Source of the DNA: Acidobacteriota bacterium | Lineage (GTDB): Bacteria; Acidobacteriota; Thermoanaerobaculia; Multivoradales; Multivoraceae | Reading direction: 5' to 3' | NCBI GenBank assembly: GCA_011525365.1 | Contig: WTGQ01000002.1 | Coordinates: forward strand, 2,524,773-2,588,772 | DNA: 64,000 nt | Shown here: one piece after another, positions 1,641 to 36,644 of the stretch | How the letters are laid out: each line of letters begins with the position of its first letter | Numbering within the stretch: the first letter of the stretch is position 1 | Position numbers and translations under genes: made by a program | The notes under the pieces: model-generated | Database searches by the model: none | Seen by the model: only the letters and a program-made list of their open reading frames with translations | Told to the model about the DNA's origin: nothing

Positions 1641-3530
1641 ATGACCGAAACCGGTGTGTCCTCGTCGGCCGCGGCTCAGCCGCTGCTTCGGATCCGCGAA
1701 CTCCGGACCTACTTCCACGGCAAGCACGAGACGGTCCGCGCGGTCGACGACATCGATCTGACGATCCAGGAGGGCGAGACGCTCGGGCTGGTCGGCGAAT
1801 CGGGTTCGGGCAAGTCAGTGACCTCGCTGTCCGTGATGCGCCTGCTCGAGAGCACCGCGAACATCGAGAGCGGGGAGATCGCCTGGTTCGGCCGGGACCT
1901 GGTTCATTTGCCGAACCGCGACATGCGGAACCTGCGCGGCAAGGACATCGGGATGATCTTCCAGGAGCCGGGCACTTCGCTGAACCCGGTCTTCAGGGTT
2001 GGCGACCAGGTCGGAGAGGCGCTCCGCGTCCATCTCGGGATGAGCCGCCAGGAAGCGCGCCGGCGGACGATCGAGCTGTTCGAGGAAGTCGGCATCCCGG
2101 AACCGGAACGCCGTGTGGACAACTATCCGCACGAGATGTCGGGCGGCCAGAAGCAGCGGGTCATGATCGCCATGGCGCTTTCGTGCAATCCGAAGCTCCT
2201 GATCGCGGACGAGCCGACGACCGCGCTCGACGTCACGATCCAGGCCCAGATCCTGGACCTGATCCGCCGCCTGCGCGACGAGCGCGGCATGTCCATCCTG
2301 TTCATCAGCCACGACCTGGGGGTGATCGCCGAGATCGCCGACCGGATCGCAGTCATGTTCCGCGGTCGGATCGTCGAACGCGGCCGGGTGACCGAAGTGT
2401 TCAACGACCCGCGGCATCCCTACACCAAGGGGCTGCTGGCCTGCCGTCCGCACCTCGACCGCGACTTCCGGCGCCTGCCTACCGTCGCGGACTTCATGGA
2501 CGTGGAAGAGGATGACGGCGAGGGCGAGATCCGGATCACCGAACGCGAAATCACCGAAGACTCGCTGAATGAACTGGTCGGCCGCGGGCGCGGCCGCCTG
2601 CTCCATCCGCGCACCGCGCTCGAGAGCCTGGGTTACGCGGAGGATCCGGGACCCGGCGAACTCGTGCCAGGCGACACGGAACCGCTGCTCGAGGTGCGCG
2701 ACCTCAAGGTCTACTACCCGATCCGGAGCGGCTTCCTGCGCCGGCAGGTGGGCGACGTCCGCGCGGTCGACGGCATCTCCTTCGACGTCTATCCTGGCCA
2801 GACGCTCGGGCTGGTCGGAGAGTCCGGCTGCGGAAAGACGACGACGGGGCTGGCTCTGCTGCGCCTGATCGACATCACCGCCGGCACAGTCCGGTTCGAG
2901 GACCAGGACGTCACGGCGATCCCGTCGGGTCGTCTGCGGGCGCTGCGCGGCCAGATGCAGATCATCCTCCAGGATCCCTACTCGTCGCTCAACCCGCGGA
3001 TGACGGTCGAGGCGATGCTCAGCGAGGCGATGGCGATCCACAAGATCGGCGACAGCCGCAGCGACCGCCGCGACCGCGCGGCCCGGCTGCTCGAGGAGGT
3101 CGGCATGGAGACCGTCCACCTGCGCCGCTACCCGCACGAGTTCTCCGGCGGCCAGCGCCAGCGGATATCGGTTGCCCGCGCGCTGGCGGTCCAGCCCAGG
3201 CTGATCATCTGCGACGAATCGGTTTCCGCCCTCGACGTCTCGGTGCAGGCGCAGGTCCTGAACCTGCTCAAGGACCTCCAGGAGGAGCGCGGCCTGACCT
3301 ACATCTTCATCAGCCACGACCTGTCGGTGGTGAAGTTCATGTCCGACATGATGGCGGTCATGCTCGACGGCAGGATCGTCGAACAGGGGCCGTCGGAGGC
3401 GATCTACGCGGCGCCTCGCGAGGACTACACCCGCCGGCTGATCGACGCCGTCCCCGACGACTCGATCGCCAACATCGAACGCCGGCAGCAGCAGCGGAGA
3501 GAAGCGCGGAGCATGCGCGAGGCCAACTGA
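1641..3530 (+). CDS. ABC transporter ATP-binding protein with two fused ATPase domains (DppD/DppF- or GsiA-like)
   Basis: In-frame ATG at 1641. The upstream part of ORF 675..3530 is antisense to the binding-protein gene. It has two Walker A motifs ([16 protein letters not shown]), two signature motifs ([16 protein letters not shown]) and two Walker B motifs ([16 protein letters not shown]). Confidence 0.85.
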
Positions 3531-7420: not shown

Positions 7421-7849
7421 ATGACGACCGAGGACTGCCGAGCGAGCGGCCGGCTCAACCTCCCCGAATCCGAGTGGCGGGCAAGACTCGGCGACGAGGA
7501 GTTCCGGGTTCTGCGGCGGGAGGCAACCGAACGCCCCTTCACTTCGGCGCTCAACCACGAGGGCCGGAGCGGCATCTTCCTCTGCGCCGGCTGCGGCGCG
7601 GAGTTGTTCCGGTCGGGTGCGAAGTTCGAGAGCGGCACCGGCTGGCCCAGCTTCTTCGAGCCCATCGCCGGAGCCGTCGACACGAAGCGGGACTTCAAGC
7701 TGATCGTCCCCCGAACCGAGTACCACTGCTCCCGCTGCGGCGGGCACCAGGGCCACGTCTTCAGCGACGGACCGGAGCCAACCGGCCTGCGTTACTGCAA
7801 CAACGGCGTCGCCCTGCGCTTCCGGCCGGCGCCGGAAAGCGAGCCGTAA
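7421..7849 (+). CDS. msrB: peptide-methionine (R)-S-oxide reductase MsrB
   Basis: Two zinc-knuckle CxxC pairs (CAGCGAEL and CSRCGGHQGHVF) and the catalytic Cys in RYCNNGVAL, which is Cys rather than Sec. Length 142 aa. Confidence 0.9.
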   Translation: MTTEDCRASGRLNLPESEWRARLGDEEFRVLRREATERPFTSALNHEGRSGIFLCAGCGAELFRSGAKFESGTGWPSFFEPIAGAVDTKRDFKLIVPRTEYHCSRCGGHQGHVFSDGPEPTGLRYCNNGVALRFRPAPESEP

Positions 7850-7886
7850 ACCCGACACGACCCCCAAGGCGGGGAGGAGTAAGACG

Positions 7887-9500
7887 ATGTCGACCAAAGC
7901 GACAACCCGCCGAGCCGGCGGAGCGATCCTCGGGGCCGGCCTCGCGCTGACGCTTGCGTGCGGCGGTGAGCAGGTCGAGCCCCTCACCACGACCGTCAAC
8001 ACGGAGCTCGGCGCGGTCGAAGGCCAGGCGCTCGAGTCCGGAGTCTTCAAGTTCGCCGGTATCCCGTTCGCGGCGCCGCCGGTTGGCGACCTCCGCTGGC
8101 AGGCGCCCCAGCCGGCTGCCGCCTGGGAGGGCAGCCGCGACGCCACGCGGTTTTCCGGTAGCTGCTGGCAGCCACTCTCCCCACCCGGTTCCTTCTACGA
8201 CACCGGCGAGATCGAGCGCAGCGAGGACTGTCTCTACCTGAACGTCTGGACCGGCGCCGAACACGCCGAAGCAGCTCTTCCGGTCATGGTGTGGATCCAC
8301 GGAGGCGGCCTCCAGACCGGCTCTGGCAGCACTCTGCTGTACGACGGGGAGAGTCTGGCCGAGCGCGGCGTCGTGCTGGTGACGATCAACTACAGGCTCG
8401 GACCGATGGGCTTCCTGGCTCACGCGGAACTCTCGGCCGAAACCGAGTCGGGAGCGTCGGGGAACTACGGCATCCTGGATCAGGTCGCCGCGCTCCAGTG
8501 GGTCCAGGCGAACATCACCGCCTTTGGCGGAGACCCGGGCCGGGTCACGATCTTCGGCGAGTCGGCCGGTTCGTGGAGCGTCAACTACCTGACCGCGACG
8601 CCGCTCGCCGCGGGGCTGTTCCACCGCGCGATCGGGCACAGCGGCGGCATCTTCTGGCCCATGCCGCAGCTTGGAGACGCGGAGTCCGAAGGTGCGCGCG
8701 TCGCGGAGCGCCTCGGCGCCGGCGACCTCGCGGCCATGCGCGCCGCCACCGCCGAGGAGGTCTACGAAGCGGCCGGTGCGTCCGAAGCGCTTGTCTTCGT
8801 CGGCCTCAGCGACGGCCACGTGTTCCCGCGCGACATCCACGATCTGTTCGCCACCGGCGAGCAGAACGACGTCGACACGATCGTCGGCTTCAACAGCGAC
8901 GAGGGGACCGCCCTGTTCGCCGGTCCCGCCGGAACCACCGTCGCCGACTACCGGCAGTTGCTCGCGGACACCTATGGCGAGCACGCCGACGCGATGTTCG
9001 CCGTCTACCCCGCCGAGACCGACGAACAGGCACGGATCGCCGCCTACGAGAACACGGCCGACCAGTTCTTCGCCTGGCAGATGCGGACCTGGGCCAGGCT
9101 GCAGAACCGCACCGGACAACGACCCGTTCGAATGTACTTCTTCTCCCGGGTACCACCATGGGACGAGGCGGACACCTACGGTTCGTACCACGCGGCGGAG
9201 ATCGCCTACGCCTTCGACAACCTCCACCTCAGCGGCGAGTTGAGGGACGACATCGGCCCCTTCAACCACGCCTGGGACGAGACCGACCGGGCGCTCGCGG
9301 ACACGATGGCGAGCTACTGGGTGAACTTCGCGGCCACCGGCGACCCCAACGGCGACGGCCTGCCCGACTGGCCCGTCTACGATCCGGATGCCGACGGCGT
9401 CCTCGAACTGGGCGACAAGATCGGCGTCATCCAGGGCCTGCTCAAGGATCGGCTGGACGCCTTCGACGCCTACTACGAGGACCTGCGCGGGAACGGGTAG
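7887..9500 (+). CDS. carboxylesterase type B family lipoprotein (para-nitrobenzyl esterase-like)
   Basis: Lipobox LTLACGG. Type-B esterase motifs EDCLYLNVW, the nucleophile elbow GESAGSWSV and VMVWIHGGG. GGAGGAG Shine-Dalgarno sequence. Confidence 0.9.
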   Translation: MSTKATTRRAGGAILGAGLALTLACGGEQVEPLTTTVNTELGAVEGQALESGVFKFAGIPFAAPPVGDLRWQAPQPAAAWEGSRDATRFSGSCWQPLSPPGSFYDTGEIERSEDCLYLNVWTGAEHAEAALPVMVWIHGGGLQTGSGSTLLYDGESLAERGVVLVTINYRLGPMGFLAHAELSAETESGASGNYGILDQVAALQWVQANITAFGGDPGRVTIFGESAGSWSVNYLTATPLAAGLFHRAIGHSGGIFWPMPQLGDAESEGARVAERLGAGDLAAMRAATAEEVYEAAGASEALVFVGLSDGHVFPRDIHDLFATGEQNDVDTIVGFNSDEGTALFAGPAGTTVADYRQLLADTYGEHADAMFAVYPAETDEQARIAAYENTADQFFAWQMRTWARLQNRTGQRPVRMYFFSRVPPWDEADTYGSYHAAEIAYAFDNLHLSGELRDDIGPFNHAWDETDRALADTMASYWVNFAATGDPNGDGLPDWPVYDPDADGVLELGDKIGVIQGLLKDRLDAFDAYYEDLRGNG

Positions 9501-27921: not shown

Positions 27922-28647
27922 ATGGCCTTCAAGCTCGAGCGACGCGAGACCACCCGGTCGAAGTTCGCACCCGGTTCCCTCCATCTCGGTGGATCGCCAT
28001 ACGAGTTGGAGCCCGAGAACCGGACCCCACTGCGAATCGCGGTCATCGCGACGATCGCCTTCCACGCGCTGCTGTTCGTCATCAGCTTCCCCAGCATGAG
28101 GCCGCGGGCACTCCAGGCCGCACAGTCACCGAAGGCGTTCGTCGTCCAGGCCGTGCGCTTCAAGCCGCCGCCACCCGCCAAGGCGGAGCCCATTCCCCAG
28201 CGAAAGACGAAGAAGATCCCGATTCCCGACCCGACCCCCGACGAGCCCGAGCCGCTGATCCGGGAAGAGCTCCTCGAAGCGCCGCAACTGGAGATCGATG
28301 GCATCGCCGACGTCCTGTTCGACCTTCCAGAAGCCCCCTCCCCCGCCGGACCGCCCGGCACCATGTGGGTCGAAGGCGATGTCCTGCCCCCCAAGAAGAC
28401 CTACGCTCCGCTGCCCAACTACACCGAGGAGGCGCGTCAGGCGCGCATCCAGGGCGTCGTCATCCTGCAGGCCGTCGTCGATACCCTGGGCCAGGTCGGC
28501 TACGTCAAGGTGCTCAAGGGCCTGCCGGAGGGTCTCACCGAGTCCGCCGTCCAGGTCGTTCAGGAGTGGCGCTACGAACCCGCCACCCTGAACGGCGAAC
28601 CGGTCCCGGTCTACATCAACCTGACCGTCAACTTCTCGCTGCAGTAG
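27922..28647 (+). CDS. TonB family protein (C-terminal TonB domain)
   Basis: Pro-rich spacer KPPPPAKAEP followed by the TonB C-domain NYTEEARQARIQGVVILQAVVDTLGQVGYVKVLKG...ESAVQVVQEWRYEPA. Confidence 0.7.
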   Translation: MAFKLERRETTRSKFAPGSLHLGGSPYELEPENRTPLRIAVIATIAFHALLFVISFPSMRPRALQAAQSPKAFVVQAVRFKPPPPAKAEPIPQRKTKKIPIPDPTPDEPEPLIREELLEAPQLEIDGIADVLFDLPEAPSPAGPPGTMWVEGDVLPPKKTYAPLPNYTEEARQARIQGVVILQAVVDTLGQVGYVKVLKGLPEGLTESAVQVVQEWRYEPATLNGEPVPVYINLTVNFSLQ

Positions 28648-28667
28648 GCGACCCGGCGGATAGCCAC

Positions 28668-28846
28668 GCCTGCGCCGAGGCCGGGAGGGAGGGTCCCAGC
28701 GGACGCTCGCGCCCTCTTGGTGGATGAGGAGACCTGGCGCTCGCTTCGGTCGGCTGCGCTCCGCTACGTGGTTGGTTGATGGACGGACATGGGCAGTCGC
28801 TGGCCTCTAGCCCGCTGGGACCCTCCCTCCCGGCCTCGGCGCAGGC
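28668..28846. repeat. 35-bp perfect inverted repeat pair flanking a 109-bp spacer (MITE-like or large hairpin)
   Basis: 28668-28702 GCCTGCGCCGAGGCCGGGAGGGAGGGTCCCAGCGG is the exact reverse complement of 28812-28846. The repeat itself is certain. Its nature is not. Confidence 0.7.
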
Positions 28847-28860
28847 TGGACGATGTCGGC

Positions 28861-28945
28861 GTTGTGTCACACCTATGCACCTCAACACGGTTTGTGTAAC
28901 ACTTCGAGGCCACAAGTGCGACACAAGCCTGTTTGTCGTACACAG
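28861..28945 (+). promoter_or_regulatory. array of four GTGTnACAC-type near-palindromic motifs upstream of the fic gene (operator-like)
   Basis: GTGTCACAC at 28864, GTGTAACAC at 28894, GTGCGACAC at about 28915 and GTCGTACAC at about 28934. Spacings are 30, 21 and 19 bp. The array ends about 40 bp before the fic ATG. Confidence 0.4.
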
Positions 28946-28986
28946 ACGTTCCACAAAGAGCGCGACGCCAGGAGTCAAGAAGCACG

Positions 28987-30102
28987 ATGTCTCCCGTCCA
29001 CTACCAACCCGGCAGCTTCCCGCCAGACGAGCGCCTCGACTGGGCCGAACTCGTACCGCTGATTGGCCCCACCACGGCTGCAATCGCCCGCTACGACGGC
29101 TTACTCGAAGCCGTGCCCAACCCCGATGTCCTGCTTGCGCCGCTCGGAACCCAGGAAGCCGTGCTCTCGTCCCGGATCGAGGGCACTCAGGCTACCGCCC
29201 GCGAGGTCCTAGAGTACGAGGCTGGACAGGAAGCGCCCTCTTCGGAGCGGAGGAACGACTTCGTCGAGGTCCTGAACTACCGACTCGCGATGCGCGAAGC
29301 AGAGCAGTTGCTGAGGAAGCTACCAATCTGCCTCAAAGTCGTTCGGCAAACGCATCGGGTTCTCCTTCGTGGAGCACGCGGCAAAGGGCGCGACCCAGGC
29401 GAGTTCCGCCGGTTACCGAACTGGATCGGCCCCCCCGACTGCACAGTCGAAGAGGCGCGCTTCGTGCCGATCGAGGCCGACAAGCTCATGGCCGGCCTCG
29501 ATCGATGGGAGAAGTACCTCCACGAGGAGACTCGGGACCAGTTAGTTCAGCTCGCTGTCATACACGCCGAGTTCGAGGCTCTGCACCCGTTCCTCGACGG
29601 TAACGGCCGTCTGGGTCGCATGCTCGTGCCTCTCTACCTCGCCGAGAAGAGCCTGATTCGGCGGCCGATGTTCTACATCAGTGCCTTCCTTGAAGCGAAT
29701 CGCGACGCCTACTACGAAGGACTCCTCGCAGTCTCCCGCGATGACGACTGGACAGGCTGGTGCCGCTTCTTCCTAGAGGCCCTGCGCACGCAAGCGGAGG
29801 ACAACATCGCCAAGGCGAGAAGAATCCTGAGTCTGTACGACCGGATGAAGCACCATGTAACCGACCTCACTCACTCCCAGTACGCCATCAGTTCGCTGGA
29901 CTTCATCTTTGAGTCTCCGGCGTTCAGCAGCACACGTTTCATCGCACACGAGAAGGTGCCCGCTCCCGCCGCTCGCCGCATCCTGAACGCACTCCGCGAT
30001 GACGGCGTGTTGAGAACGGTGCTCCCAGCCAGCGGCCGCCGGCCCGCGATCTTCGTCTTCGACGAACTCCTCGAAGTCGCCGAGGGTCGCGCGACCGAGT
30101 AA
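28987..30102 (+). CDS. Fic family protein (class II Fic with an N-terminal inhibitory helix)
   Basis: Fic motif HPFLDGNGRLGRM. Upstream (S/T)xxxE(G/N) inhibitory motif SSRIEG. ATG at 28987. Confidence 0.85.
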   Translation: MSPVHYQPGSFPPDERLDWAELVPLIGPTTAAIARYDGLLEAVPNPDVLLAPLGTQEAVLSSRIEGTQATAREVLEYEAGQEAPSSERRNDFVEVLNYRLAMREAEQLLRKLPICLKVVRQTHRVLLRGARGKGRDPGEFRRLPNWIGPPDCTVEEARFVPIEADKLMAGLDRWEKYLHEETRDQLVQLAVIHAEFEALHPFLDGNGRLGRMLVPLYLAEKSLIRRPMFYISAFLEANRDAYYEGLLAVSRDDDWTGWCRFFLEALRTQAEDNIAKARRILSLYDRMKHHVTDLTHSQYAISSLDFIFESPAFSSTRFIAHEKVPAPAARRILNALRDDGVLRTVLPASGRRPAIFVFDELLEVAEGRATE

Positions 30103-30125
30103 CCTCGCCGACTCAACAAACGCTG

Positions 30126-32985
30126 ATGAGACTAGCTTGGCAGGAGATCCGCCCACGCGCCGCCGCGTTCGCCCGCGACTGGGCCGACGCCGGCTACGAG
30201 AAGGGCGAGACGCAGAGCTTCTACAACGCCTTCTTCCGCATCTTTGGCGTCGAGCGGCGCAGCGTCGCCCGCTACGAGGAGCAGGTCAAGCGGCTGGACG
30301 ACTCGCAGGGGTTCATCGACTTGTTCTGGCCGGGCGTGCTGCTGGTCGAGCAGAAGAGCGCCGGCCGCGATCTCGTGGCGGCGCGCCGTCAGGCGCTGTC
30401 TTACTTCGACGCCCTCCCGGAGCGCGAGCGGCCTCGCTATCTGCTGTTGTGCGACTTCCAGAACTTCGAACTGCTCGACCTGGACGAAGGCGAGGAAGCG
30501 CGGTTCACGCTGGCCGAGTTGCCCTCCAACGTGGAGAAGTTCGGCTTCATCCTCGGGGTCCAGAAGCGGACCTTCCGCGACGAGGACCCGGTCAACGCGG
30601 AGGCCGCGAAGCTGATGGCGGATCTCCACGACCGGCTGCTCGAGGTCGGCTACGGCGGTCGGGAGCTGGAGTTGTTCCTTGTCCGGATCGTGTTCTGCCT
30701 GTTCGCCGACGACACGGGCATCTTCGAGCGGCGCGACATCCTGCTCGAGCTGCTGGAGCAGCGAACCTCACCGGACGGCAGCGACTTGGGCGGCAGGTTG
30801 GCGCATCTCTTCCAGGTCCTGAACACGCCCGAAGCCAGCCGTCAGGCGACCCTGGACGAGGACCTGGCCCGCTTCCCGTACATCAACGGCGACCTGTTCG
30901 CGGAGACCCTGCCGATCGCCGACTTCGACTCCGCGATGCGCAGAGCGCTGCTCGATGCTTGCCGCTTCGACTGGACCGAGATCTCGCCGGCGATCTTCGG
31001 GACGCTGTTTCAGTCGGTCATGGAACCGGAGGAGCAGCGGATCAAGGGCAGCCACTACACGTCGGAGGCGAACGTCCTGAAGGTCATCGAGCCGCTGTTC
31101 CTGGACGACCTGCGGGCCGAGTTCTTGAGGCTCCGGCGGAGCCGAGGCACGCGGCGCAACGCCGAACTCCATGCCTTCCGGCAGCGACTCGGCCGGATGC
31201 GTTTCCTCGATCCGGCCTGCGGTTGCGGCAACTTCCTGGTCATCGCCTACCGGGAACTGCGCCAGCTCGAGATCGAGGTGCTCCGGGAACTCTTCCCGTC
31301 GCGCCAGCTCGGCCTCCTTGCTGACGCTCTGTCCCTCGTGAACGTGGATCAGTTCCACGGCATCGACCTCGACGAGTTCCCGAAACGGATCACGGAGATC
31401 GCGCTCTGGATGATGGACCACATCATGAACAACAGGCTCAGCCTGGAGTTCGGGGAGGCCTACGCGCGGATCCCGCTGGAGAGCTCACCGCAGATCCCTG
31501 CGCGGTGACGCTCTGGAGGTCGACTGGGACGACGTCCTTCCGCCGGAAGAGTGCTCCTTCGTGCTCGGCAATCCGCCCTTCGGCGGTGCCAAGCACCAGA
31601 CCGAGGAACAGCGGGCGCAGGTGCATCGCATCGCGGATCTCGGCAAGAGCGGCGGCACCTTGGACTACGTCACGGCCTGGTTCCTGAAGGCCGGCGAGTA
31701 CCTGCACCAAGGAATCGAGACCCAGCGCCGGTCCAGGGATCCAGCTGCAGCCGCCAATACGGTCCGGCCGCTCCGGATCGGTTTCGTCGCCACGAACTCG
31801 ATCACTCAGGGCGAGCAGGTCGGCCAATTGTGGCCGTTGATCTTCGACCGTCTGGGACTCGAGATCGCTTTCGGCCACCGGACGTTCGCCTGGAAGTCGG
31901 ACATCAAGAAGAAGGCGAACGTCCATGTCGTGATCGTCGGCCTCACGCTAGCGACCGACACCCCCAAGGATCGTCGGTTGTTCTCTTATCCCGACGTCAA
32001 GGGGAGTGCCGAGGAGAGCCGCCACGCTGCGATCTCGCCGTATCTCGTTGACGCCGGCGGACTCGCCGACCCGCATCTCGTCGTGCGGGAGACGGCAGAG
32101 CCGCTCAACGGCTGGCCGCGTCTCGCTAGCGGCAGCCAGCCCATCGACGACAGGAACTACATCTTCACCGACGACCAGCGGGCTACGTTCCTGGAACAAG
32201 AACCCGGGGCCGCGAAGCACTTGCGCCCCTACGTTGGCGGCGGTGACTACATACAGCGCCACTCCCGTTGGATCCTCGCCCTTCAGGACGCCGAGCCAGA
32301 GGAACTAGCAGCCTTGCCCTTCGTGGTGCAGCGGATCAAGGCTGTCAGGGAGTTCAGGTCAAGGAGCAAGAGGAAGGGCACGCTCGCGATCGCCAACTCT
32401 CCCCGAAGCTACAACGTCGAAGTCCTGCCCACGTCGCCCTTCCTCATCGTCCCCGAGGTCAGCTCCGAGCGCCGCGACTACGTGCCGATCGGCTGGCTTG
32501 AACCCCCGACCATCCCGAGCAACACAGCCCGCATCATCGAGAATGCGACCAAGCCGCTCTTCGCCCTGCTGACCTCCGCCATGCACATGGCCTGGCTGCG
32601 CGTGATCGGCGGCCGCCTGGAGAGCAGGTACCGATACTCGATCGGCTTGGTCTACAACCCCTTCCCGGCGCCGGCGGCGGACGCGGAAGTGCTCAACGAG
32701 AAGCTCGCGCCCTTGGCCAACGCCGTACTCGCAGCCCGCGCAGCGCACCCCGGCGCAACGCTGGCCGAACTCTACGACCCGGACCTCATGCCCGACGACC
32801 TCCGCCGCGCCCACCAGGCCATCGACCGTGCCGTCGACCGCCTCTACCGCCCGCGCCGCTTCTTATCGGAGAACGAGCGGCTGGAGCACCTGCTCTCCCT
32901 CTACGAGAAAACGATCGCCCCCATCTCCGCCGCGGCCCAGCCCAAGCGAAAGCGACGCCGCCGGAGGACGGTCGCGCGCAGATAG
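30126..32985 (+). pseudogene. MmeI-family type IIL restriction-modification enzyme (endonuclease-methyltransferase-TRD fusion), disrupted by a frameshift near 31495-31510
   Basis: N-terminal PD-ExK FIDLFWPGVLLVEQKS. Methyltransferase motif I LDPACGCGNFLV. Motif IV GNPPFGG, with the preceding RGDALEVDWDDVL in the +1 frame. The first frame stops at 31506-31508, and the second frame is open upstream through the junction. Confidence 0.65.
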
Positions 32986-33052
32986 CCGGGGTTGGCGTCC
33001 TGGAGCAGTCGCGTTCAGTCGCCGACGGGAGGCTAGAGCTAGAGTCCGGTTC

Positions 33053-34492
33053 ATGTCCCAGCGGCCCCCTGGCACCGAGCCGATTCTCCTCGAGAATGCA
33101 GTGCGGTTGCGCCCGGCCACGGCGGTCGACAGTGGCACCTGCGAACGTGACGTCATCGCGCGGGCGGAGATTCGGCTCCTGCCGAAGCCGGGCCTCGCAC
33201 TCATCGCGGACGACACTCCTTTCCGCCTCGATTCGGCCAAGGAGCCCTGGACCCTGGTTCAACCCAAGACCTCTGGAGAGCTGTTCGACGTCACGCCGCA
33301 ACCATCTCCTTCATCGCCGCCGGAGGACAAACTCAGGCAGTTCTTTGAGATCTTCGAAGCCACCGGCCACGAAACCGTAAGTCGTCAATCGACAGCCGAC
33401 GCAAGGGAACCGACACGGTGGAACCTAGTGTTTCTACCCCGACGTGCGCCCATCGTCGTTGAAAGGCGTCGAGAAGCTGCCAAGCGACTTGAACTCGAGA
33501 TTCTCAACTTCCCCGTCTTCGGGGGTGACGCGACGAAGGCGGTGCAACTCCCTGGCGGAATCTACCGGATCGGCCATCTGGCGGTCGAAGCGGCACCCTG
33601 GAAGATCGAGTTCACCGAGAGGCCCGGGCTAGGCAGCGTCAGGGCGGAGTTGAATGCAAGCCGCGGGTTCGCAACGACCCACGAGGCAAGAATCGACAGA
33701 GCGGACGGCGGTCCAATCGAGAAAGAGGAAGCTCAGCGTCTCTTGGAAGCGCTCGACCGGTTTCTCTCCTTCACGCGAGGAGTCGGATGCGCCACCGCGG
33801 TTGTAAGGGCGTTCTCGGGTGACGACGCCGTCGTCTGGGAACAGTGGGGCTGTCGGCAGGTGGCGCCTTGGCGCCCTGAACCAGACTCCTGGTTCGACTT
33901 GGAGCATGGGCGAGTCCTTGCCGAGGCCTTCTCCGCCTTCCTTCGTACTTGGGAAACGTGCCACGAGAAGCGGGCCGCCCTTCGCGAGGCGATCTACTGG
34001 TACCTCACAGGACACTGGGAGAACAGTCGAGTGGACGGCGGCCTCATCCTGCTACAGGCGGCGATGGAGCGCCTTGCACATACCTTCTACCGCCCGAAGC
34101 GCTGGAAGGGAAAGGAGAGGGAGACAAGCGGGCAGTGGCTTCGGATGGCCCTTGAGCGAGCTGGAATCCCGGTGGAAGCGCCAGCCAGCTTCAAAGCCCT
34201 CGGCACGTTCGCCGACGGCTTGAGCTGCCCGAAGGGAGAGAAAAGAGACGCCGTGTTTGCGATGACGCAGGCGCGAAACAACGCCGTTCACCCAAGGAAG
34301 GAAACGGAAGTCGCGGGCAGCCTCTACTTCCAAGCCTGGACCCTGGCTCGTTCCTTCGTGGAGCTCATGGTACTAAGTGCCATCGGCTACCAAGGCCCCT
34401 TCGCCAATCGCCTGCGGGAGGGAAGGGTGGAACTCGTGCCCTGGGCGCAGACCAAGAAGCTCCAGTCGGCAATCACACACGGCGCCGAGTAG
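33053..34492 (+). CDS. hypothetical protein, 479 aa, with a C-terminal helical domain carrying a HEPN-like RNxxxH motif
   Basis: ATG at 33053. Lies 67 nt after the MmeI-like gene. The motif is AMTQARNNAVHPRKE inside a predicted all-helical C-terminal 180 aa or so. I recognise no family. Local GC (about 59%) is lower than the flanks. Confidence 0.45.
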   Translation: MSQRPPGTEPILLENAVRLRPATAVDSGTCERDVIARAEIRLLPKPGLALIADDTPFRLDSAKEPWTLVQPKTSGELFDVTPQPSPSSPPEDKLRQFFEIFEATGHETVSRQSTADAREPTRWNLVFLPRRAPIVVERRREAAKRLELEILNFPVFGGDATKAVQLPGGIYRIGHLAVEAAPWKIEFTERPGLGSVRAELNASRGFATTHEARIDRADGGPIEKEEAQRLLEALDRFLSFTRGVGCATAVVRAFSGDDAVVWEQWGCRQVAPWRPEPDSWFDLEHGRVLAEAFSAFLRTWETCHEKRAALREAIYWYLTGHWENSRVDGGLILLQAAMERLAHTFYRPKRWKGKERETSGQWLRMALERAGIPVEAPASFKALGTFADGLSCPKGEKRDAVFAMTQARNNAVHPRKETEVAGSLYFQAWTLARSFVELMVLSAIGYQGPFANRLREGRVELVPWAQTKKLQSAITHGAE

Positions 34493-34518
34493 TGGGTCGG
34501 CGATCCCGAGCAGCGGAG

Positions 34519-35421
34519 ATGGCTCTGTGTGCGGAAGACGCGTTGCTCGCCGCCATCGAGATCTACAACAAGCCTCGAGTCGCCTACCGCGAGCAGACGC
34601 TGGCGCTCCTCCTGGTGAATGCCTGGGAGATCCTCCTGAAGGCGCGTGTCGTTCAGATGCACGGCAACAATCTGGCGGCGATCTACAGGCGGGAGCGAGG
34701 GTCCAAGCGATTCAGAAGAGCCAGATCGGGGAGAATCCTCACGGTCAGCCTTAGAGAGGCCGCCGAGAAGGCTCAGGTGGCCGATCAGGTGCGAAGCAAC
34801 CTGGAGGGACTCTGCGAGATCAGGGACGAGGCGGCGCATCTGGGCAACCTAGGGTCCGAGTTCAGGGAACAGACGCTGAAGCTTGGTTCAGCGGCGGTTC
34901 GGAACTTCGTTGTAGCTGTTGGCCGATGGTTTGGCCGGCAGGTTGAGGCACCTCACTTCCTGCCGCTTGGCTTCCTCAATCAAGCGGATCTGGTAAGGCC
35001 GGCCAACGTGCGGCAGAGAGAACTCCTGGACTATCTGAGGAAGCTGACTTCGGACCAGACACCATCGGACTCCGGGTTCACCGTGAGCTTGCGTGTCGAC
35101 GTTCTGCTGAACCCGGAGTTCTCCGGCGGTGGCACGATCGGTGTCACGAACAACCCAGCCGCGCCGAAGGTGCACCTGACGGACACGCAAGCTCTCGAGC
35201 GGTATCCGCTGACGTACGAGGATCTCGTAGAGGAGTGCCGCGCCCTGATTCCGAACCTCAAGCAGAACCAGTCGTTTCACGAGGCGATGAAGACAGTGAA
35301 GAGTGACGCTAACCAAGCGCTCGAGAGGCGGCTGAATCCGCAGAAGCCCGGAGGTACGAGGAAGTTCTTCTACGCCAGGACGGCGCCGGGCCGTCTCCGG
35401 CACCTCCTGCGAGGTGACTGA
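34519..35421 (+). CDS. hypothetical protein, about 300 aa, with an N-terminal four-helix HEPN-like domain (Rx4H: EIRDEAAHLGN)
   Basis: The ORF 34492..35421 overlaps the stop of the upstream gene. The probable start is the ATG at 34519. It has a conserved-looking helix AIEIYNKP...LALLLVNAWEILLKA and an Rx4H motif. I can place it in no named family. Confidence 0.45.
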   Translation: MALCAEDALLAAIEIYNKPRVAYREQTLALLLVNAWEILLKARVVQMHGNNLAAIYRRERGSKRFRRARSGRILTVSLREAAEKAQVADQVRSNLEGLCEIRDEAAHLGNLGSEFREQTLKLGSAAVRNFVVAVGRWFGRQVEAPHFLPLGFLNQADLVRPANVRQRELLDYLRKLTSDQTPSDSGFTVSLRVDVLLNPEFSGGGTIGVTNNPAAPKVHLTDTQALERYPLTYEDLVEECRALIPNLKQNQSFHEAMKTVKSDANQALERRLNPQKPGGTRKFFYARTAPGRLRHLLRGD

Positions 35422-35494
35422 AGTGGCTGGCGCAGCGTTCGGCGTGGTCCGTTGGTCCGCGTAGGGGAGCCAGCCGACGCCGATGCCCGCCGGC

Positions 35495-36577
35495 CTAATC
35501 TCCGCCCGAACCCGTGCTCGCGCCCTGCCCCTTCTTCTCGTAGTACTCCTTCTCCAGCAGCCGGGCGCCGCGGAGGATGTTGCCCATCGCGTAGTTGCCT
35601 TCGTGGCAGGCGTACTCGTAGAGAAGGCCGTCGGTTCCCGGCCAGATGAGTTCGCCGCTATAGGGGGCAGCGTAGTCCGTGTCATGGACGGTGAACCCGT
35701 AGAGCAGGTCCCTCTCGCCGTGGCGGCTGAAGCGCTCGATGACCTTCAGGCCGTCGCGCGGGTCGCTCTGGCTGTCGAGGAAGTTGGTCGTCTCCACGAC
35801 CAGCGTGTCGCCTTCCCACCAGCCGATCGAGTCGCCGCCCATCGAACGGTACTCGGCTGGCGCGTGCTCGGCGTTCAGGCGGACCACCTTCGCCCAATGC
35901 ATCCACTCGACCAGGATCACGACGTGGTCCTCGGTCTGCGTGATCGTCTTCAGGTTGTTGTAGGGCAGTGAACGGACCGGCGTCGTGGCGACGCCGGTGT
36001 AGATGCAGCGGTCTCCGGGAGTCAACGTCTCGGGGCCATCGTAGGGATCGTCCCCGGCCTCGATCCACCAGGCGTCCCCGGTGTTCTTGTAGAGGTACGG
36101 GTTCACCCTGGCCCGCCGCGCCTTGCCGGCCTCGGTCAGTTCCGGCATACGGCCGTTCGGCGGGTCGATGAGGACCGATGTACGGTACTGGCCATCGATC
36201 GGATACGCCTGGTTGCCAAAGTCCAGCCAGAAGAAGTTGTAGCCGCCGACCGCGCCGGACGCGCCCGCGGAACCGTCGCCGCCAGCCGGGGGCGCCTCAC
36301 GGTCCGGGTCGCTGACCGCGTCCGCGCCCGCGCTGGCCGCCGCCATCCCGGCAGCGATCCGCTCCGCTTCCTCCGCGGTCATGAACTGTTTGTCGCCGAA
36401 GCGGGGATCCCGTTCGAACGGTGTCAGGTTGGCGACGTCGTAGTTGCCGGACAGGTCCGGCCGGCCGCTCGCCGTGCGCCGGATGTCGTCATCGCTGGCC
36501 GCCACGGCGGGCGTGGCGAGAAGCGACAGAAAGACGAGAACAACGAACAGGGTGGAGACGTTGCGACGAATCGGCAT
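35495..36577 (-). CDS. secreted hypothetical protein
   Basis: Signal peptide MPIRRNVSTLFVVLVFLSLLATPAVAAS. About 335-aa mature region with no recognisable family. Confidence 0.5.
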   Translation of the reverse strand: MPIRRNVSTLFVVLVFLSLLATPAVAASDDDIRRTASGRPDLSGNYDVANLTPFERDPRFGDKQFMTAEEAERIAAGMAAASAGADAVSDPDREAPPAGGDGSAGASGAVGGYNFFWLDFGNQAYPIDGQYRTSVLIDPPNGRMPELTEAGKARRARVNPYLYKNTGDAWWIEAGDDPYDGPETLTPGDRCIYTGVATTPVRSLPYNNLKTITQTEDHVVILVEWMHWAKVVRLNAEHAPAEYRSMGGDSIGWWEGDTLVVETTNFLDSQSDPRDGLKVIERFSRHGERDLLYGFTVHDTDYAAPYSGELIWPGTDGLLYEYACHEGNYAMGNILRGARLLEKEYYEKKGQGASTGSGGD

Positions 36578-36644
36578 GGTGGCTCTCCTTGCGGGGGAAT
36601 GGCTGCGCCGACACTACCGCAGGAGACCAGCGGAACGACGACGG

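Follow-up and report, generated by a model that had tools for sequence, protein, structure and literature searches.

Adjacent YopA-family and DUF3644 genes as candidate HEPN ribonucleases in a decaying defence island of an Acidobacteriota bacterium

The window analysed here is a 64,000-nucleotide stretch of an Acidobacteriota genome (GTDB class Thermoanaerobaculia, family Multivoraceae; assembly GCA_011525365.1, contig WTGQ01000002.1, positions 2,524,773 to 2,588,772, forward strand), and our subject is a cassette of two adjacent genes within it, called gene 1 and gene 2 below. We favour, with slightly better than even confidence, the reading that these are two separate single-protein HEPN ribonuclease (RNase) defence genes of the abortive-infection type, lying next to each other in a restriction-modification (R-M) island. 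That both proteins have the HEPN RNase fold and motif we consider very likely, and a role in defence probable. An earlier note on this DNA had described two genes of 479 aa and about 300 aa, and the list of open reading frames (ORFs) confirms two intact forward-strand genes of 479 aa and 309 (or 300) aa. The note had also assigned neither protein to a known family, and there it was wrong. Judged by sequence comparison, gene 1 belongs over its full length to the YopA family and gene 2 is a member of DUF3644/PDC-S19; with both genes in named families, the proposal of a previously undescribed system does not stand.

Fold, motif and family of the two proteins

In the AlphaFold2 (AF2) model of gene 1 (predicted local distance difference test score, pLDDT, 88.8; predicted template modelling score 0.89), a beta-rich N-terminal and middle region of aa 1-265 precedes a C-terminal domain. 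That domain forms the four-helix up-and-down bundle of HEPN proteins and carries, on its third core helix, their conserved Rx4-6H motif, often R-N-x3-H. The motif, ARNNAVH, is the one that the earlier note had picked out in an all-helical C-terminus, and its RNxxxH lies at the end of helix 400-412. Across 76 homologues, with identity down to 24%, R408, N409 and H413 are invariant, and together with F240 they are the sole invariant positions of the family. A low-confidence insertion at aa 73-92 is absent from most relatives.

The family name comes from several sources. Pfam YopA_M (PF26308) and YopA_C (PF27216) are precomputed on 12 of 12 close homologues, one of them 94% identical; these domains are read from the homologue records. 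The local Pfam copy gave gene 1 no match at E<=1 and gave none of the 76 family members a YopA_M or YopA_C match. A tblastn search with gene 1 reached yopA of Bacillus phage SPbeta (E 3e-14), and the SPbeta protein (438 aa) aligns with positions 9-439 of the 441-position gene 1 family profile (E 1.8e-88), its motif, FRNKIVHP, retaining RNxxxH. Relatives in E. coli bear the RefSeq name "YopA family protein". A profile search of 1.84 billion representatives at E<=1e-3 sizes the family at 3,383 clusters of 50% identity, typically 430-460 aa long, and its range takes in the Bacillus prophage SPbeta, E. coli islands and plasmids, cyanobacterial plasmids and Acidobacteriota. A scan of IMG/VR gave one contig, and the family is therefore not phage-enriched.

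Other resources are silent on gene 1. PADLOC (2023) gave no match for it (E<=1) or for any of the 76 family members, a PDB chain sequence search found none, and Foldseek of the model against viral structures (BFVD) returned nothing at E<=0.001. NCBIfam matched neither gene 1 nor gene 2. A literature search that included PF26308/PF27216, SPbeta and HEPN found no published function for the YopA family.

Gene 2 is matched by Pfam DUF3644 (PF12358) at 113.7 bits (gathering cut-off 27.6; E 9.9e-33). The PADLOC check that had been suggested for both proteins succeeded here: model PDLC04954 (PDC-S19) matches at E 6.3e-71, aligning aa 5-296 with positions 4-315 of 330, and gene 2 is matched by eight more PDC-S19 models and by no other PADLOC family. 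DUF3644 has been described as a HEPN domain, in an EC042_2821 family found in R-M system operons (Anantharaman et al. 2013, PMC3710099), and gene 2 shows the HEPN fold and invariant Rx4H of that family (AF2 model, pLDDT 79). The N-terminal bundle with EIRDEAAH proposed earlier is thus upheld. Its R102 and H107 (300-aa numbering) do not vary among 55 homologues, the most distant at 21% identity, and neither do the motifs AIEIYNKP and NAWE..LKA; in the 309-aa form, AIEIYNKP starts at aa 21 and EIRDEAAH at aa 109. A Pfam scan found neither the EC042_2821 restriction endonuclease domain (PF18740) nor a zinc ribbon in gene 2. PHROGs matched it to an unannotated family only, and the PDB chain sequence search gave one chance match (E 0.23). 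Its C-terminal part runs, in the model, through a helix at 222-228, a strand near 231, helices at 233-243 and 251-262 and strands at 267-271 and 281-285 (pLDDT 76-91), an order that may resemble a winged helix, with nucleic-acid binding possible.

Composition predicts 2-2.7 Rx4-6H strings per protein by chance, and each of the two proteins has three. An Rx4H string by itself was accordingly rejected as evidence, since about 2-3 per protein arise by chance. Both copies here carry weight because they are invariant across homologues and placed in HEPN-fold helices. Alignment of the two families with hhalign pairs AIYWY with AIEIYNKP, LILLQAAMERLA with LLLVNAWEILLKA and RNNAVH with RDEAAH, at a probability of only 2%, and we claim no specific kinship between gene 1 and gene 2 beyond the shared fold.

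The two genes and their relatives in genomic context

Relatives of both genes stand repeatedly beside R-M and other defence genes, as the earlier note had expected. Those of gene 1 adjoin an MmeI-like gene and PIN/RHH, SNF2 and transposase genes, and also SIR2, GmrSD_N, AAA_15/DUF3696 and HsdR. In E. coli they are found with a type I R-M system and two DUF262 genes, in an island that carries an integrase and lies next to ssb, and also on an IncY plasmid. The SPbeta yopA neighbourhood holds the RES-domain gene yopC, the SieB-family gene yopH and the yonT toxin gene. Gene 1 homologues of about 41-45% identity are each followed by a convergent gene for a NACHT/nSTAND-type nucleoside triphosphatase, which makes a second recurrent YopA-family setting, in the same bacterial class as the window. 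As a separate observation, a small helix-turn-helix (HTH) gene of about 75-80 aa follows the yopA-family gene on the same strand in an E. coli plasmid, an E. coli chromosome and SPbeta; it may be a recurrent partner of the family, absent from the window.

Upstream of gene 2 relatives, 60 metagenome loci show type I S, R and M subunits, Eco57I-type enzymes and a BsuBI restriction enzyme, along with Shedu, nSTAND3 and integrases. In all three of its loci, the nearest outgroup of gene 2 (46-51% identity) closes a cluster ordered DUF1156, PLD/SNF2, DUF3644, with a DUF1156 methyltransferase-like protein of about 990-1010 aa and a PLD/SNF2 helicase of about 1060 aa; in two of these loci a 254-aa ORF stands ahead of the cluster. 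We see in it a DISARM-like or R-M-like module to which a HEPN gene is attached.

In the window, gene 1 and gene 2 sit in a decaying defence island with SoFic and an MmeI-type R-M gene, and their place downstream of Fic and of the decayed MmeI-like gene, noted before, is confirmed by Pfam and PADLOC. The lower GC content seen earlier is also real: 62.5% in the cassette versus 68.2% in the window and 68.3-68.6% in the flanks, with a GC content at third codon positions (GC3) of 0.73-0.76 versus 0.86-0.91 in neighbouring core genes.

The two genes meet at GAG TAG TGG GTC, where one base is common to the gene 1 stop and a GTG start for gene 2. The gene 1 start is supported because four homologues share its MSQ(R/W/G) N-terminus. 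For gene 2, the closest database homologues are annotated at 300 aa, from an internal ATG that leaves a 26-nt intergenic gap, so that the genes lie no more than 26 nt apart with either start. TAGTG and the nine codons before that ATG are kept in all seven related loci; variable sites in these codons number 0, 3 and 6 at the first, second and third positions, and the peptide stays VGRRSRA(A/E)(E/G)M. Because TAGTG is kept and the nine codons vary mainly at third positions, we favour the overlapping GTG as the gene 2 start, a choice that is plausible but unproven. Co-transcription is probable and translational coupling perhaps occurs. Of the coupling asserted in the earlier note, tight linkage is real and translational coupling is possible; the gene 2 start is ambiguous. 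The close packing has the appearance of a local operon arrangement passed down in a single lineage. Across 28000-36600 Rfam detected no RNA family, and thus no sign of an AbiF-type RNA antitoxin, a promoter and terminator scan gave nothing above shuffled expectation, and a tRNA scan found no tRNA at the island borders.

What decides among the readings is the behaviour of the pair in other genomes. Related loci were gathered by exact-protein look-up and pattern scans, and the gene 1-gene 2 pair was found in only seven, all in Thermoanaerobaculia (Ca. Multivorans/Multivoraceae), where the order Fic, MmeI, gene 1, gene 2 recurs and two chromosomal sites are used overall. Fic is present in all seven, with only its C-terminal part in L007. 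Four of the seven have a broken gene 1 or gene 2, and each gene outlasts the loss of a functional partner: gene 1 in L001 and L002/L006, gene 2 in L003/L005 (Table 1). The in-frame deletion of about 75 aa in the gene 1 of L003 (8895-9974; = L005) removes the RNxxxH helix exactly, with the ORF left open and the DUF3644 gene intact, and the product is, as far as its sequence tells, a natural catalytic-dead variant. In L001, a DUF2513 gene (120 aa) is inserted at 7611-7973 between MmeI and the gene 1 homologue, a further sign of gene turnover at the site. Outside the clade, no YopA-family gene accompanied the full-length gene 2 homologues (27-37% identity) in any of 80 metagenome loci, 52 of which have more than 1.5 kb of upstream sequence, and a DUF3644 neighbour was found in none of about 14 other gene 1 loci (L008-L012, L017-L020, L101-L106). 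The two families were thus not seen together beyond one lineage. The pair is co-inherited with Fic and MmeI in one clade and is decaying piecemeal. Paired HEPN proteins had been taken to mark a single system; the pairing does not extend beyond this clade, and each gene stands alone elsewhere in the sample. Since the partner is missing outside the clade and each gene survives alone, an obligate pair is disfavoured, as is a toxin-antitoxin relation.

The strongest competitor, which we nonetheless think unlikely, is an obligate two-component HEPN system in which translational coupling would set the stoichiometry and the proteins would act jointly, for instance as a hetero-oligomeric RNase or with one of them as sensor or guard of the other. 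The conserved TAGTG coupling is the main point for such cooperation: the overlap is present in all seven loci and the codon pattern makes the start appear translated. The pair is also retained in L014 at 51% and 64% identity, at the other chromosomal site, and both proteins have HEPN domains, which dimerise. However, the seven loci belong to one lineage and also share Fic and, except in L014 where it is replaced, MmeI or its remnant, so that a single origin is possible. The missing partners elsewhere, the intact genes with no functional partner in L001, L002 (gene 1) and L003 (gene 2), and the tie of the closest gene 2 outgroup to DUF1156/SNF2 clusters instead all count against it. It is tempting to speculate that a true two-HEPN system (hetero-oligomeric or guard-effector), perhaps held inactive by the Fic AMPylase, arose in Thermoanaerobaculia and is undescribed; we judge this a long shot, somewhat less probable than the obligate pair in general. 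On a more modest reading, the YopA family would be an unrecognised, widespread family of single-protein HEPN abortive-infection genes.

About as improbable as that speculation is a reading of the two as HEPN proteins of housekeeping or RNA processing, or as functionless decaying remnants, that lie in the island by chance. Decay of the island is visible, both in the frameshifted MmeI gene and in the four loci with a broken cassette gene, and the literature search gave no function for any YopA-family protein. Yet neither ORF in the window is truncated or has lost any residue that is invariant in its family, conservation of the catalytic motifs extends across large families, the distribution is patchy, in mobile and defence contexts across phyla, and GC3 lies below that of core genes.

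MntA AMPylates and neutralises HepT, and minimal HEPN toxins are about 130 aa long. A toxin-antitoxin arrangement of this kind, with one HEPN toxin neutralised by its neighbour protein or by the Fic AMPylase, has in its favour the co-inheritance of Fic in all seven loci and the Fic/Doc genes noted near R-M-linked HEPN genes (Anantharaman et al., PMC3710099), but it is the least credible reading of all, since no MNT-type nucleotidyltransferase is present, neither protein is similar to a known antitoxin, both keep catalytic HEPN motifs, both orphan states occur in relatives and are hard to square with an essential antitoxin, homologues elsewhere lack partner and Fic alike, and 479 and 309 aa are far above the size of the minimal toxins.

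Several points nevertheless weigh against two separate defence RNases as we favour them. Both the TAGTG overlap and the short extension at the gene 2 N-terminus are kept at 51-64% protein identity and at two chromosomal sites; this exceeds casual adjacency and would fit functional coupling. Several of the related loci come from metagenome-assembled genomes, where errors of assembly could account for some of the "pseudogenes". The N-terminal domain of gene 1 has no structural match, a fold search found none for the C-terminal ~150 aa of gene 2, and the sensor role given to each is an assumption. Finally, our literature search found no experiment on RNase activity or defence for either protein or any YopA-family member, and no published test of PDC-S19, which is a computational candidate family.

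Table 1. Features of the window and of related loci. Positions are those of the window unless a locus is named.
Feature	Position	Strand	Remarks
Gene 1 (YopA family)	33053-34492	+	479 aa from ATG 33053; frame open over 32828-34492 (ORF list)
Gene 1 HEPN-fold helical domain	33911-34387	+	aa 287-445
Gene 1 putative catalytic motif R408-N409-N-A-V-H413	34274-34291	+	within ARNNAVH, aa 407-413
TAGTG junction	34490-34494	+	gene 1 stop TAG 34490-34492, gene 2 GTG 34492-34494
Gene 2 (DUF3644/PDC-S19)	34492-35421	+	309 aa from GTG; 300 aa from ATG 34519 (ORF list)
Gene 2 DUF3644/HEPN domain	34531-34992	+	aa 14-167 of the 309-aa form
Gene 2 putative catalytic motif R-D-E-A-A-H	34822-34839	+	aa 111-116 (309-aa form); R102, H107 (300-aa form)
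Gene 2 C-terminal sub-domain, possible winged helix	35182-35373	+	inferred from secondary-structure order
Fic gene (SoFic-like)	28933-30102	+	first of the co-inherited island; Pfam Fic_N and Fic; PADLOC SoFic E 7.9e-108
MmeI-type IIG R-M gene	30126-32985	+	two ORFs, 30126-31508 and 31561-32985; PADLOC REase_MTase_IIG
NACHT/nSTAND genes near gene 1 homologues	L008 1707-3992; L009 11378-13663; L017 9232-11491; L104 1704-3968	convergent	
DUF1156-PLD/SNF2-DUF3644 cluster	L013 1038-8909; L015 1784-8909; L107 755-7909		
Small HTH gene	L020 9010-9249; L102 11400-11639; L103 5146-5373	that of the YopA-family gene	yopB; "HTH-like domain-containing protein"
Related locus L004			gene 1 intact, 91% identity; gene 2 intact, 97% identity; MmeI frameshifted
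Related locus L003 (= L005)			gene 1 with in-frame deletion of about aa 344-421, RNxxxH lost; gene 2 intact, 85% identity
Related locus L001			gene 1 intact; gene 2 frameshifted in the middle, two stops
Related locus L007			gene 1 frameshifted; only the ends of gene 2 left
Related locus L002 (= L006)			gene 1 intact, 51% identity; gene 2 a 32-aa remnant; MmeI a 31-aa remnant
Related locus L014			gene 1 and gene 2 intact, L002-type site; two reverse-strand genes in place of MmeI

The MmeI-type gene of the island is split into two ORFs. Its first ORF carries Pfam MmeI_N, MmeI_hel and MmeI_Mtase, and its second MmeI_Mtase, MmeI_TRD and MmeI_C. The split is caused by a 1-nt insertion near 31496 (atCCCt versus atCCt in L007 and L003), which leads to a stop at 31506-31508. 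The remainder of the gene is 88-98% identical to intact relatives, and it is intact in L001 and L003 (951-952 aa); the break may have arisen by a very recent frameshift, or it may reflect a sequencing error within a short run of C. By GC3, the MmeI gene (0.86-0.91) looks compositionally native, as do core genes such as those for a helicase (0.91) and TonB (0.86); Fic (0.76), gene 1 (0.73) and gene 2 (0.76) do not.

At the left edge of the island, in the intergenic region that separates a TonB_C gene from the Fic gene, there is a perfect 35-nt inverted repeat whose arms (28668-28702 and 28812-28846) are 109 nt apart. The window contains it once, where none is expected by chance, and it was not found in any of 106 fetched loci, close relatives included.

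A proposed mechanism and its significance

We infer the RNase activity, target, trigger and defence phenotype of both proteins by analogy with ApeA, DARNA/PD-T7-3, PrrC, RloC, HepS, HEC-08 and Ishtar. HEPN domains act as dimers. We propose a model where each protein is a latent, metal-independent endoribonuclease. In gene 1, a beta-rich sensor of about 265 aa would come first and the effector, the C-terminal HEPN domain with its invariant RNxxxH, second. Gene 2 would have the reverse order, an N-terminal HEPN domain with Rx4H followed by a C-terminal domain of about 150 aa, possibly nucleic-acid-binding. Dimerisation of the HEPN domains would build a composite active site from two Rx4-6H motifs, and the non-HEPN domain would sense an infection cue and switch the RNase on. 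The activated enzyme could then cut host tRNA or mRNA, with translation stopping and abortive infection or growth arrest as the outcome.

With these assignments, two window genes that had been listed as "unknown" become part of a readable island of SoFic, an MmeI-type enzyme broken by a frameshift and two predicted latent HEPN RNases. The claim to a new system is reduced accordingly, as both genes belong to named families and their pairing is lineage-specific. The remaining interest lies in that start/stop-coupled, lineage-specific pairing and in the YopA family itself, which is large, apparently untried and outside PADLOC (2023), has an invariant RNxxxH and occurs beside R-M, GmrSD, SIR2 and NACHT genes. 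An E. coli or SPbeta YopA member would be an easy and worthwhile candidate for phage defence. The non-HEPN domains of the two proteins, which have no structural match, could recognise new infection cues, and the natural variants, a motif-deleted gene 1 with an intact gene 2 and the reverse, offer genetic evidence on mutual dependence.

Comparison with known HEPN systems

ApeA (Gao 2020; Juozapaitis et al. 2026, bioRxiv 10.64898/2026.01.26.701840) is an abortive-infection tRNA anticodon nuclease activated by dinucleotides that bind away from the active site. Like gene 1, it is a single chain in which non-catalytic domains at the N-terminus precede a divergent HEPN domain at the C-terminus, and its ApeA-NTD1 (about 300 aa, mostly beta strands, with conserved aromatics; PMC3710099) resembles the gene 1 N-terminus. 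The E. coli ApeA monomer, however, is predominantly alpha-helical and about 580 aa long, whereas gene 1 has a beta-rich N-terminus and 479 aa. Pfam HEPN_Apea weakly matches two of 76 YopA-family members (best E 7e-4). With no HEPN_Apea and no PADLOC match for gene 1 itself, membership in ApeA was rejected.

The nearest parallels in genomic setting are PrrC and RloC, HEPN RNases in or beside R-M operons, sometimes with Fic/Doc nearby, which carry an N-terminal ABC ATPase (PMC3710099). Their setting matches that of gene 1, gene 2 and many of their homologues; identity with PrrC/RloC was rejected, as Pfam and the AF2 models show no ATPase domain in either protein. Loss of the MmeI gene (L014) or its frameshift (the window) leaves both genes in place, and they therefore do not depend strictly on that R-M protein. 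A HepT-MntA type system was also rejected, there being no nucleotidyltransferase domain in gene 1, gene 2 or their neighbours, and the proteins measuring 479 and 309 aa.

For gene 2, the domain order of an N-terminal HEPN Rx4H domain followed by another C-terminal domain is shared with DARNA/PD-T7-3, HEC-08 and Ishtar. DARNA/PD-T7-3 is an N-terminal HEPN tRNase that cleaves tRNA anticodon loops, with single-stranded DNA as its activator, and its C-terminal domain is a 300-aa helical solenoid, unlike that of gene 2. Ishtar, with a DUF3644 or DUF4145 HEPN domain, acts against plasmids, removing RP4, and is likened to gene 2 by description. HEC-08 has a DUF3644 HEPN domain, and its H128 mutant loses defence. 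The C-terminus of HEC-08 resembles a zinc finger. Gene 2 has the DUF3644 domain too, but the whole protein contains only three cysteines, no CxxC pair and no zinc-ribbon Pfam match, and it was therefore rejected as HEC-08.

The families that hold the two genes remain the closest comparisons. Gene 1 is alike to YopA proteins over its full length and keeps RNxxxH, although its identity to SPbeta YopA is only about 24%, and membership provides a name and no mechanism. Gene 2 lies at the 3' end of an R-M cluster, as described for the DUF3644/EC042_2821 family (PMC3710099). PDC-S19 is a single-gene candidate, whereas gene 2 here is start/stop-coupled to a YopA-family gene.

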